From NCBI GenBank assembly GCA_023388635.1, contig JAEWFW010000002.1, positions 1 to 29,317 of the forward strand: DNA of 29,317 bases, read 5' to 3'. Shown one piece after another: positions 9,001-12,000 of the stretch. This DNA is from Bacillota bacterium. Its GTDB lineage: Bacteria; Bacillota; Bacilli; Desulfuribacillales; Desulfuribacillaceae. Each line of letters opens with the position of its first letter. Within the stretch, counting starts at the first letter, position 1. A program made the position numbers.

Positions 9001-12000
9001 CATTTGCTTAATTGCTGTGAAAGACGGTGACGATGAAGCCGTCACAGTTGTTGCCGGATATCTGATAGTTTGTACCTTGAGGTAACGGTATTTCCGTCAC
9101 ATCGGCGGATGATTCGATATAATAAATTTCCGCCAGTCCTTGACGGCAGTAATGCCATAAGTGTTTTTGTTCGTATGTGTAGCTGCGAAGAAACTCCATG
9201 TATTCCTCTAAACAGAGATTGTTCTCTTCAATGATTTGGGCGTGGGGAATTCCGACGTAACGGAAATGCCACGGCTCTGCGGAGATGCCTGTTAGATATT
9301 GCTTGTTGTGCCGATATCGCTCAATGAACCCGAAGGAAGAAGCCAGTTGTTTAAATGTGTGGCAGATGCCTTGGTTTGGGAAAGATGGTCGGATAAAATC
9401 GACTGACTCTGTCTGTTCACTGAGATCGATTGCCAGACCTGTCTGGTGTTCGCTTTCCATCGGGCGTGCTACGTATTTCGCTGTGAAATCAGCTCCGTTT
9501 TCTTGCAGAGACGTGGAGTAGATTTGCCGCTGTTCTGCCACATCGCGGTAGCCGCTGACGGCAATTAATCGTTGCGTCGCTCCGATTGTATGCACGAGGC
9601 TCGTAAGCTGCCGGCAGCAATTTTGTTCGAGCAGGATTTCCTGACCTTCGTATAAACAGAAATCAGCAGATGACAGCGGCGACAAGGGTGTCCTTTGTAT
9701 TGAATGTTGGTGCAGAGGATGGTCGCGATTGACGAGAATCAAGTGTCCGTGATGGATATCTTTTTTTGTTTTTTTTATGACTGTTGTTATCATCTGTAAC
9801 CCTCCATACTATAGGTTTGCAATTTGTTTTTCCAAAGCGAGTTGTAGTAGACGGTCGATGATGTCTGCATATGACAGCCCTAATGCCGAGAGCATTTTCG
9901 GATAACGGCTATTGGCGGTGAAGCCGGGAATCGTGTTGACTTCATTGAAGACGATCTCTCTTTCAGGAGTGACAAATAAGTCGACACGCGCCATTCCTTG
10001 GCAACCGAGAACGGTATAGATTTTTAATGCCGTGTTCTTGATTGCATCAGCCAACGGGTCGTCGATTCTGGCTGGCATATGGATTTTTGAAGTTTCCAGC
10101 GAATATTTTTCATGAAAATCAAAGAAGTCGCCTGTCAGTTCAATTTCATCTACTGCACCTATAACAGGGGAAGCGTTGCCCAGTAAGGCACAGCCGACTT
10201 CGAAGCCTTCAATCGATTGTTCGATGATCACTTGATCGTCATGCAGCCAGGCTTGTTCGATAGCCGGTATCAGATCCTGTTTGCGAAAAACTTTGGTAAT
10301 GCCGATCGACGAGCCAGACTTTACTGGTTTTACATACACGGGAAATGGCAGGTCGTCGAACTGGGGATCGGTAAATACGGTATGTTCGAGAGTAGGCTGC
10401 TGATGGCGCTCGATCAGTAGGGCGGCAGGAACTTGGATACCTGCCAATGCAACTAGTTGATGGGCTACGTGTTTGTCCATACAGATGGCAGATGCTTGCA
10501 GATCGCATCCGACGTAGGGAATTTGTGCATTTACCAATACGCCTTGAATCGTACCGTCTTCACCGTTTTTGCCATGCAATATCGGAAACGCCACATCAAT
10601 TCTTGTCAGATCGTAAGACGCGTTATGTAGTTCGGCCAGATATTTGCCGGTGGGCAGACATGTGAGTGCCGCCGGTACATTGCGCGGGTCTGCTTGCCAG
10701 GTGTTTTGGCGAATCGCATCGGTGTTACCAAAATATCGATACCAGACGCCTTGTTCCGATATTCCCACGAGTATCGGTTCGTATAGACAACGGTTCATAT
10801 GATCTATTACGGCAGCGGCAGATTGCAGAGATACGCTGTATTCATTGGAATTGCCGCCAAAAATTATTAGAACATGCTGTTTTCTCATAAAAAGACACCC
10901 TTTCAATTATATTGGATGTTTGCATTGACTATGCATACTAGCCGCACTACTTTATATAGTACAGTTAAATTATACCTAGCTATTTCATTTTTTGCAAGAC
11001 TGTTTTGTGGTATACTATGCAGATATGTCAATGATTAAAAGATAAGCAATTATGGAACATGGAATTATGGAATACTAATTGCAAAGATTGCTTATGGTAT
11101 AGGGTTATGGAATGCTCGCGAATATTTGTTTATGAATATGATTATGGAATGTATGTTTATGGTATAGGGTTATGGTATAGGGTTATGGTATTGGAGGATT
11201 TGGAATGAGATATATTGTTTTAGTATTCTTGGGAGCTACGAGTTATGGGATTTTATCGACGATTGTGAAGTTTGCTTATGGTGATGGTTATAGTTTGGGG
11301 GATGTTGTCGGGATTCAACTGCTGGTGGGATTCTTAATTACGAGCGGTTTTACGTTCTACATTAAAATGCGCAGAAAAATTAAAATACGCGGCAAATCTT
11401 CATTGGTATCTTCAGTTGACGAACATGATAAGCAGTATGTCGCACCGACATGGAAGCAAAGAGGAATCTTGATGGCGGCTGGATTGCCGATGGTAGTCAC
11501 GTCGTTTTCTTATTATGGGGCGCTTCAATATATATCGGCTTCGCTGGCGATTATTTTGTTGTTCCAGTTTACATGGATCAGTGTGTTGATTCAAATGATA
11601 CACAGACGCCAGCGGCCGCATAAAATTATTCTGCTGACGTTGTTCATATTGTTCGGTGGAACATTGTTGGCAGCAGGGATTGCTGAGCAGGGAGTAGGGC
11701 ATTTCCACTGGTGGGGTATCACTATGGGTCTGATTTCTGCCGTCTCCTATTCGCTGTTTATTTTTTTCAACGGGCAGGTTGTAACGACGGTATATCCGAT
11801 GTACCGGACGCAGTGGATGCTGACAGGGGCATTATTGGTAGCTTTTTTGATTTACCCGCCGAGTTTTCTGGTTGATGGACGGTTATGGGAAGGGCTGTTG
11901 TTTTACGGATGCTTGCTCGGCTTCTTTGGGTCGTTTATCCCTCCGGTTTTATTTGCCATAGGGGTACCGCAGATTGGTGGGGCTATGGCGGGGATTCTTG

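Follow-up and report, generated by a model that had tools for sequence, protein, structure and literature searches.

A strain-variable TTATGGWAT repeat array upstream of an EamA/DMT transporter gene, at the position of a purine riboswitch in orthologous loci

A 29,317-nucleotide (nt) stretch of a Bacillota genome from the family Desulfuribacillaceae (contig JAEWFW010000002.1; hereafter the window, by which we mean the whole stretch analyzed) contains an array of about ten copies of the word TTATGGWAT. The region under study, positions 11049 to 11204, lies between two divergent genes. As an earlier reading made from the DNA alone (the sequence-only reading) had noted, these encode a VanG-type D-Ala-D-Ser ligase on the − strand and an EamA/DMT transporter on the + strand. 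Why should such an array stand immediately before the start of a transporter gene: is it a target for a regulator, as RNA or as DNA, or has it simply grown there? We found that the array differs in copy number between strains, that it stands at the position of a purine riboswitch in orthologous loci, and that part of the leader is probably a decayed copy of the 5′ end of the transporter gene itself. We tentatively favor the explanation that the array is a minisatellite leader, confined to this lineage and prone to slippage, that was formed after the loss of a guanine riboswitch and has hardly any specific regulatory role, if it has one at all.

About ten copies of a 9-mer lie on one strand

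Exact TTATGGWAT occurs seven times in the window, always on the + strand (11065, 11092, 11105, 11142, 11157, 11170, and 11183), against 0.88 occurrences expected across the window, and none of 100 shuffles reached seven. Three further + strand copies are degenerate or carry one mismatch (11050, TTATGGAAC; 11057, ACATGGAAT; and 11130, TTATGAATA), which gives a total of about ten copies between 11050 and 11191. Their start-to-start spacings are 7, 8, 27, 13, 25, 12, 15, 13, and 13 nt, with spacers of −2 to 18 nt between the 9-mers; the arrangement is irregular and out of helical phase. Tandem Repeats Finder reported TTATGGTATAGGG ×2.7 at 11157–11191, with 100% matches, and an imperfect 8-nt unit ×3.4 at 11048–11073. 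The array can be divided into the following parts:

11048–11073, + strand: first repeat block, about 3.4 copies of an 8-nt unit, containing TTATGGAAC (11050), ACATGGAAT (11057), and TTATGGAAT (11065)
11092–11113, + strand: pair of copies 13 nt apart, TTATGGTAT aggg TTATGGAAT
11130–11150, + strand: pair of copies 12 nt apart, degenerate TTATGAATA tga TTATGGAAT
11157–11191, + strand: perfect tandem TTATGGTATAGGG ×2.7, the polymorphic part (Tandem Repeats Finder and strain comparison)

The GG pair (CC on the complementary strand) is retained in nine of the ten copies. GGU replaces GGA in four of the ten, and exact ATACCA, the reverse complement of TGGTAT, is found in four. GGA triplets number eight (11054–11202), a density of 51 per kb in the 156 nt under study against 18 per kb in the window. 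The description of the locus as a repeat array rich in GGA was therefore borne out, with all copies on one strand. Two details given with it held in part. The last three 13-mers, described as perfectly tandem, are indeed in tandem, but the third is not perfect (TATTGG rather than TATAGG). The final copy, said to merge with a Shine-Dalgarno (SD) sequence 9 nt before the ATG, does lie next to the SD GGAGGA, ending at 11191, one base before TGGAGGA; the spacer between the SD and the ATG at 11205, however, measures 6 nt.

No second TTATGGWAT cluster was present elsewhere in the 29-kb window or in 584 kb of Paenibacillaceae loci. A literature search for the 9-mers returned primers only. When metagenomes were scanned for three TATGGWAT units in a row, the matches listed and fetched were unrelated simple satellites with other periods, with no EamA gene and no similarity to the leader.

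Copy number differs within one species

The exact EamA protein occurs on five public contigs, and in the one that was compared (L205) the intergenic region is identical to that of the window, with three 13-mer units. Two tandem 13-mers, where the window has three, were seen in two contigs of the same species, L001 (96.4% overall identity) and L002 (97.3%). Both contigs lack 12 nt (11158–11169), the net of one missing 13-mer and one additional T in the T run before it. Because these contigs are one 13-mer short, the copy number is variable, and the comparison (three versus two units) supports the earlier suggestion of a variable-number tandem repeat (VNTR). Apart from this difference, the alleles are separated by two single-nucleotide polymorphisms (SNPs) in 144 aligned nt of the array (11091 and 11140), both outside the 9-mer cores.

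The array resembles the VNTR minisatellites of multilocus VNTR analysis (MLVA) and slipped-strand loci in having perfect head-to-tail units beside degenerate ones, and in its three versus two units. Classical phase-variable repeats lie inside a reading frame or between −35 and −10 elements; this array, in contrast, lies between a promoter candidate and the SD and was probably seeded from the 5′ coding sequence of the gene itself. Phase variation, which the sequence-only reading had offered as a possible consequence, was accordingly not supported. Since the array is neither in a coding frame nor in a −35/−10 spacer, a change in copy number would alter only the length of the leader and the frame of an unproven leader open reading frame (ORF).

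Orthologous loci carry a guanine-class riboswitch

The closest named relatives of the transporter are Paenibacillus and Cohnella proteins with 52–60% identity, and the repeat array was found in none of their orthologous loci. Of 80 orthologous loci, 79 have a purine aptamer J2/3 core in the region 110–330 nt before the start of the gene; there the purine riboswitch RF00167 occupies the position equivalent to that of the array. RF00167 scored above its gathering threshold in 8 of the 12 loci tested. Examples of the aptamers are L024:2829–2928 and L003:2817–2924, in loci where the gene starts at position 3001. Their junctions are canonical (UAUAA, GUUUCUAC, and ACU(C74)A), and on the basis of these junctions, C74 included, we assign the aptamers to the guanine type. 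In minimum-energy folds of four orthologue leaders, the 3′ side of P3 together with J3/1 and P1 forms the 5′ arm of a terminator hairpin. Because the terminator shares P1 and P3 with the aptamer, the ligand should prevent termination in these models, and the riboswitch should be of the ON type.

The pbuE efflux gene of Bacillus subtilis is controlled by an adenine-responsive ON riboswitch. By analogy, the arrangement described here suggests that the EamA/DMT family exports a guanine-like purine and that its members are candidate purine exporters. An association of EamA/DMT proteins with guanine aptamers was not found in two riboswitch papers (PMC9295807 and PMC10556655), in which the term "transporter" had no matches.

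In the window, no Rfam family matched at its gathering score, and none matched even at E ≤ 10, RF00167 included. The array has no sequence or structure in common with RF00167. As the orthologues have RF00167 at this position and the window has none, we conclude that the array stands where the riboswitch was. The genes neighboring the transporter gene in the window were not found beside the orthologues, with which there is no common synteny; since the neighborhood is not shared, the locus has been rearranged. For an intermediate relative, 80% identical, both contigs begin inside the coding sequence, and a search with the N-terminal 109 residues for the contig upstream of it returned no match.

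The leader resembles the 5′ end of the coding sequence

Alignment related part of the leader to the start of the gene that follows it:

11017–11113, + strand: part of the leader, alignable with nucleotides 1–96 of the EamA coding sequence (local and global alignment)

The best block pairs 11078–11108 (ATTGCAAAGATTGCTTATGGTATAGGGTTAT) with 11262–11291 (ATTGTGAAGTTTGCTTATGGTGATGGTTAT, codons IVKFAYGDGY). The local alignment score of 31 compares with 19.1 ± 2.8 for shuffled coding sequence, with 0.2% of shuffles scoring as high, and with 14–19 for other windows of the coding sequence against the leader. Global alignment of 11017–11113 with 11205–11300 scored 12, against −6.7 ± 4.2 for shuffles (0 of 1,000 as high), and set the starts ATGcAGATAT and ATGAGATAT in register. 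The similarity extends into flanks (ATTGyrAAGwTTGC) that the other repeat copies do not have, which points to descent and away from convergence on a binding motif. Since all orthologues conserve the residues concerned, the ancestral copy would be the one in the coding sequence.

The core of the repeat word has a ready source in the protein. TTATGG spells conserved Tyr-Gly codons (xxT TAT GGx; ..SYG.. and ..AYGDGY..) and occurs inside the EamA coding sequence at 11243, 11276, and 11288. A repeat unit of about 37 nt (family D1) is also present among the leader repeats. From these alignments, the leader segment probably derives from the 5′ end of the gene as a copy that has since decayed, and it was probably the seed of the array. 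Given its similarity to the first 96 nt, the array would have been seeded by a copy of the gene start and grown by slippage.

The leader is weakly structured and poor in C

The elements that bear on transcription and translation of the leader are the following:

11205–12158, + strand: EamA/DMT transporter gene, whose orthologues lie behind the predicted ON-type guanine-class riboswitch
11193–11198, + strand: SD, GGAGGA, −9.3 kcal/mol with the anti-SD
11008–11016, + strand: candidate extended −10 element for the EamA gene, TGgTATACT, read by eye from the sequence
10969–10997, − strand: sigma-A-like promoter of the vanG-vanXY-vanT operon, TTGCAA-17-TATAAT (promoter scan, 10 of 12 matches)
11042–11095, + strand: only recurrent predicted stem, 9 bp, ATAAGCAAT / ATTGCTTAT (centroid fold)
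11059–11208, + strand: 49-codon open frame across the whole array, its TGA overlapping the EamA ATG (ATGA)

No two-hexamer promoter was found on the + strand upstream of the array in the promoter scan. The candidate extended −10 is the only good + strand promoter element there; it is back to back with the van promoter and predicts a transcription start near 11023. Transcription from this element would carry the entire array into a leader some 180 nt long. The earlier claim that the repeats must be transcribed as the 5′ untranslated region of the transporter gene is thereby made plausible, provided that this candidate serves as the promoter.

The leader has 9 C in 182 nt. Its predicted folding energy is −28.7 kcal/mol, less stable than that of shuffled sequences (−32.6 ± 3.3 kcal/mol; z = +1.19). 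With this weak fold and no Rfam match at E ≤ 10, we rejected the possibility that the leader holds a structured RNA or the remnant of a riboswitch. The recurrent stem pairs 11042–11050 with 11087–11095 across a 36-nt loop, so that the first three repeat copies are enclosed. The allele SNP C11091T changes a G-C pair of this stem to G-U and keeps the pairing, which is too little to build on.

GGAGGA is the only part of the leader with complementarity to the anti-SD, and no repeat unit reaches −4.5 kcal/mol. The repeats are therefore not pseudo ribosome-binding sites, and we rejected ribosome standby, an STAB-SD-like stabilizer, and pseudo-initiation sites on the same ground. The idea that a C-poor leader keeps the SD accessible was not supported either: the unpaired probability of the SD/AUG region was 0.15, compared with 0.18 ± 0.08 for composition-matched leaders and 0.23 ± 0.10 for leaders of genome composition.

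The open frame has 45 codons in the other allele, and the net 12-nt difference keeps the frame. The stop-free stretch extends over 57 codons and ends on the EamA start codon, an outcome seen in 0.7% of dinucleotide shuffles. No SD was found for the AUGs of this frame, as no stretch upstream of them reaches −4.5 kcal/mol with the anti-SD.

A neutral minisatellite leader is tentatively favored

Under the explanation that we tentatively favor, the riboswitch would have been lost in a rearrangement, which may be the event that placed the vanG cluster beside the gene, and a copy of part of the gene's start would have been left behind upstream. This copy would then have decayed, with slippage at 8-, 13-, and ~37-nt registers multiplying its TTATGG-bearing piece, and one derivative copy would have ended up abutting GGAGGA. 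The extended −10 element would now drive transcription of the gene by way of a C-poor leader, some 180 nt long, that lacks structure; translation would start from a strong SD of the ordinary kind, with purine sensing in cis lost. Gain and loss of units by slippage would affect leader length only. A perfect tandem accompanied by older, degenerate copies is the usual pattern of birth and decay. We take the repeats to be neutral or nearly so, as no specific trans-acting partner was seen.

Several observations weigh against this explanation. The 9-mer cores are near-perfect even where the flanks of the copies are unrelated; between units U1 and U3, which are D1 copies, the core is identical at 21 of 22 positions and the left flank at 6 of 12. 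Cores kept despite unrelated flanks are not predicted by uniform neutral decay. The window differs from L001 and L002 at 8 of 147 and 7 of 147 four-fold degenerate sites of the EamA gene (~5%), and substitutions in the array are, if anything, rarer than at these silent sites, a weak signal (Poisson p ~0.03) in which conservation is judged from two alleles of one species. One frame is open across the whole array and is preserved by the indel between the alleles. Finally, a family that nearly always keeps its riboswitch presumably needs regulation.

Alternative explanations

The alternative that survives best, which we nevertheless consider unlikely, is an RNA operator resembling that of TRAP. 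Here, an oligomeric protein that binds single-stranded RNA would place its subunits on (G)NUUAUGGWAU units; once the last unit, which lies 1 nt from GGAGGA, was occupied, the ribosome would be shut out, and the protein would act as the replacement ligand sensor. This is the only explanation that makes use of the better preservation of the cores than of the flanks, and the low SNP density is consistent with it. Every copy has the sense orientation and falls in the stretch from the promoter candidate to the SD, the leader RNA contains little C and is unstructured, and the array stands in place of the riboswitch. There is also a precedent: at trpG, trpP, and ycbK, TRAP keeps the ribosome from binding the translation initiation region (PMC10327191). 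The likeness to the B. subtilis TRAP sites lies in the ~10 same-sense repeats and in an unstructured leader that reaches the SD of a transporter gene.

The likeness does not extend to the unit. TRAP reads GAG or UAG triplets with 2–3-nt spacers. The array is built from a 9-mer, and its spacers, at −2 to 18 nt, are much less regular than is usual for ring proteins. A site for TRAP itself, which would hold nine to eleven such triplets, was rejected, since there are five GAG/UAG triplets and no pair of them at 2–3-nt spacing. No regulator gene, and no candidate gene for an RNA-binding partner, was present among the window ORFs scanned (at least 100 amino acids [aa]), and the sequences searched contained no second locus with the motif. 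In addition, the array has a simple origin in duplication of the 5′ end of the coding sequence, and its copy number varies within the species. We regard as improbable the more specific scenario in which a protein took over from the guanine riboswitch, so that a new oligomeric protein loaded by a purine signal, reading a new motif derived from a duplicated stretch of the gene, would coat the leader up to the SD and control translation of the exporter.

A DNA operator is quite improbable, even when all of its versions are taken jointly. The sites would be half-sites of a response regulator or sites of a winged-helix GntR/MocR regulator. Both MocR/GabR and OmpR-type regulators use direct repeats, and the GntR/MocR version appears to be the better fit to the motif, in that the complement of TGGTAT, ATACCA, is the GabR half-site. 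GabR recognizes a pair of ATACCA direct repeats, to which it no longer binds when CC is mutated to GG (PMC4756830). The array shares this hexamer (exact on the complementary strand in four copies), its direct orientation, and the CC/GG pair in nine of ten copies. Many pairs of copies are 37–42 bp apart, compared with 35 bp for GabR, and the array lies 55–200 bp upstream of the van −35 element.

Unlike GabR/MocR operators, which overlap the promoters of a divergent MocR gene, the array has ten copies rather than two, has no adjacent MocR gene, and lies in a leader that would be transcribed. Its ten sites are spread out of helical phase over 140 bp downstream of the EamA promoter candidate, and a 13-nt period matches no known regulator family. 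Neither a GntR/MocR nor a response-regulator gene was found among the window ORFs scanned, although such regulators are normally encoded adjacent to their sites. The scan of the 29-kb window likewise gave no vanR/vanS, vanY, or vanW. The repeat motif is lacking in the two nearest vanG relatives compared, one of which has its own vanRS on a mobilizable element; because these related loci do without the array, we also rejected it as part of the van promoter. An operator of the OmpR/VanR type would have direct repeats roughly one helical turn apart, placed upstream of the −35 element under control. With spacing that varies irregularly from 7 to 27 nt, no regulator gene, and motif-free vanG relatives, the proposal that iterated half-sites compensate for a missing VanR failed to find support.

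Translation of the leader ORF, by which the UGA in AUGA would couple to or compete with EamA initiation and gain or loss of 13 nt would bring about phase variation, is very improbable. The frame runs for 57 codons without a stop and closes right at the EamA start codon, the 12-nt difference between alleles keeps it, and the last repeat differs from the others precisely where they would yield an in-frame TAG. That same base change, however, also makes the SD. The in-frame AUGs have no anti-SD complementarity, and the peptide is the repeat read in three phases. The leader contains seven stop triplets, all of which the frame in question would escape by chance with a probability of ~0.06, and one indel in three keeps the frame.

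We consider a cluster of CsrA sites the least probable of these explanations. In that model, translation would be repressed by CsrA dimers that span AUGGA motifs and the SD. CsrA represses through binding of GGA motifs (PMC4894983; PMC13443453). There are eight GGA in 156 nt, and for five of them the surroundings, A-U-GGA-A, agree with A(N)GGA. Sites occur in pairs spaced by 12–15 nt, and one GGA pair constitutes the SD; the array thus shares with CsrA/RsmA clusters several GGA, one of them at the SD. It differs in that four of the ten copies have GGU instead of GGA and in that the conserved word, a 9-mer, extends beyond A(N)GGA into flanks that CsrA does not need. The usual form of a CsrA target is a GGA in a hairpin loop (PMC13443453), and no stable hairpins that would present GGA were predicted here, only the one 9-bp stem with its 36-nt loop. 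In Bacillus-type bacteria, the known CsrA circuit is that of flagellin (PMC6529632), and no logic links a circuit of that type to a purine-type exporter. The richness in GGA follows from the origin of the repeat in the coding sequence, and the GGA said to overlap the SD is the SD itself. No CsrA match was found among the ORFs scanned in the 29-kb window. Clustered CsrA sites, which the sequence-only reading had placed among its candidate roles, therefore fit the array poorly.

A G-quadruplex (GG tracts 4 nt apart), a sigma-54 promoter, LytTR sites, a PurBox, and AbrB TGGNA sites were considered and set aside, some of them as misfits in spacing or sequence.

Implications

Read conservatively, as a neutral minisatellite leader, the locus is a small, clear example of the rebuilding of a 5′ leader, in which a near-universal riboswitch was lost and a fragment of the gene start was amplified. 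For annotation, motif counts alone are no ground for calling such arrays CsrA sites or regulator sites. The array may serve as a strain marker. Of more general interest is the Paenibacillus/Cohnella EamA/DMT family, which, behind its predicted ON-type guanine-class riboswitch, is a family of candidate purine exporters. Should the array prove to be bound by a protein, a riboswitch would have been replaced by a protein-RNA operator, which would be far more important.

Neighboring genes and other features of the window

The operon divergent from the transporter gene comprises the following genes:

9809–10888, − strand: VanG-type D-Ala-D-Ser ligase gene
9008–9793, − strand: VanXY gene
6768–8975, − strand: membrane serine racemase gene (vanT)

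In a distant relative (L207), vanR-vanS-vanG-vanXY-vanT lies beside relaxase and MobC genes. At its other end, the EamA gene overlaps pdxT of a pdxS-pdxT operon tail to tail by 12 nt (12147–12158). Because the two frames converge and overlap, their transcripts must overlap at the 3′ ends. Directly upstream of pdxS is a 21-nt tandem ×2.3 (ATATTATATGATTATCTGTCAT, 13637–13685) with ATATCAyA-like words, which may be an operator of the pyridoxal 5′-phosphate synthase operon; no pdxR gene is adjacent.

Three other regions of the window were noted. An imperfect 7-nt tandem, ATATTAG ×6.3, lies at 25921–25964 between a prismane/hybrid-cluster protein gene and an NMT1-type ABC transporter operon. Two neighboring ORFs on the − strand (5030–5449 and 5688–6095) encode HicB-like antitoxins, with no obvious HicA among the ORFs of at least 100 aa. 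In the region 15454–19330, an RtcB RNA ligase gene (15454–16725, − strand) is divergent from a 463-aa ORF that has no Pfam match and from a 325-aa ORF with a weak match to WCX (WYL-associated). This region may represent an Rtc-type repair module whose regulator is unusual.

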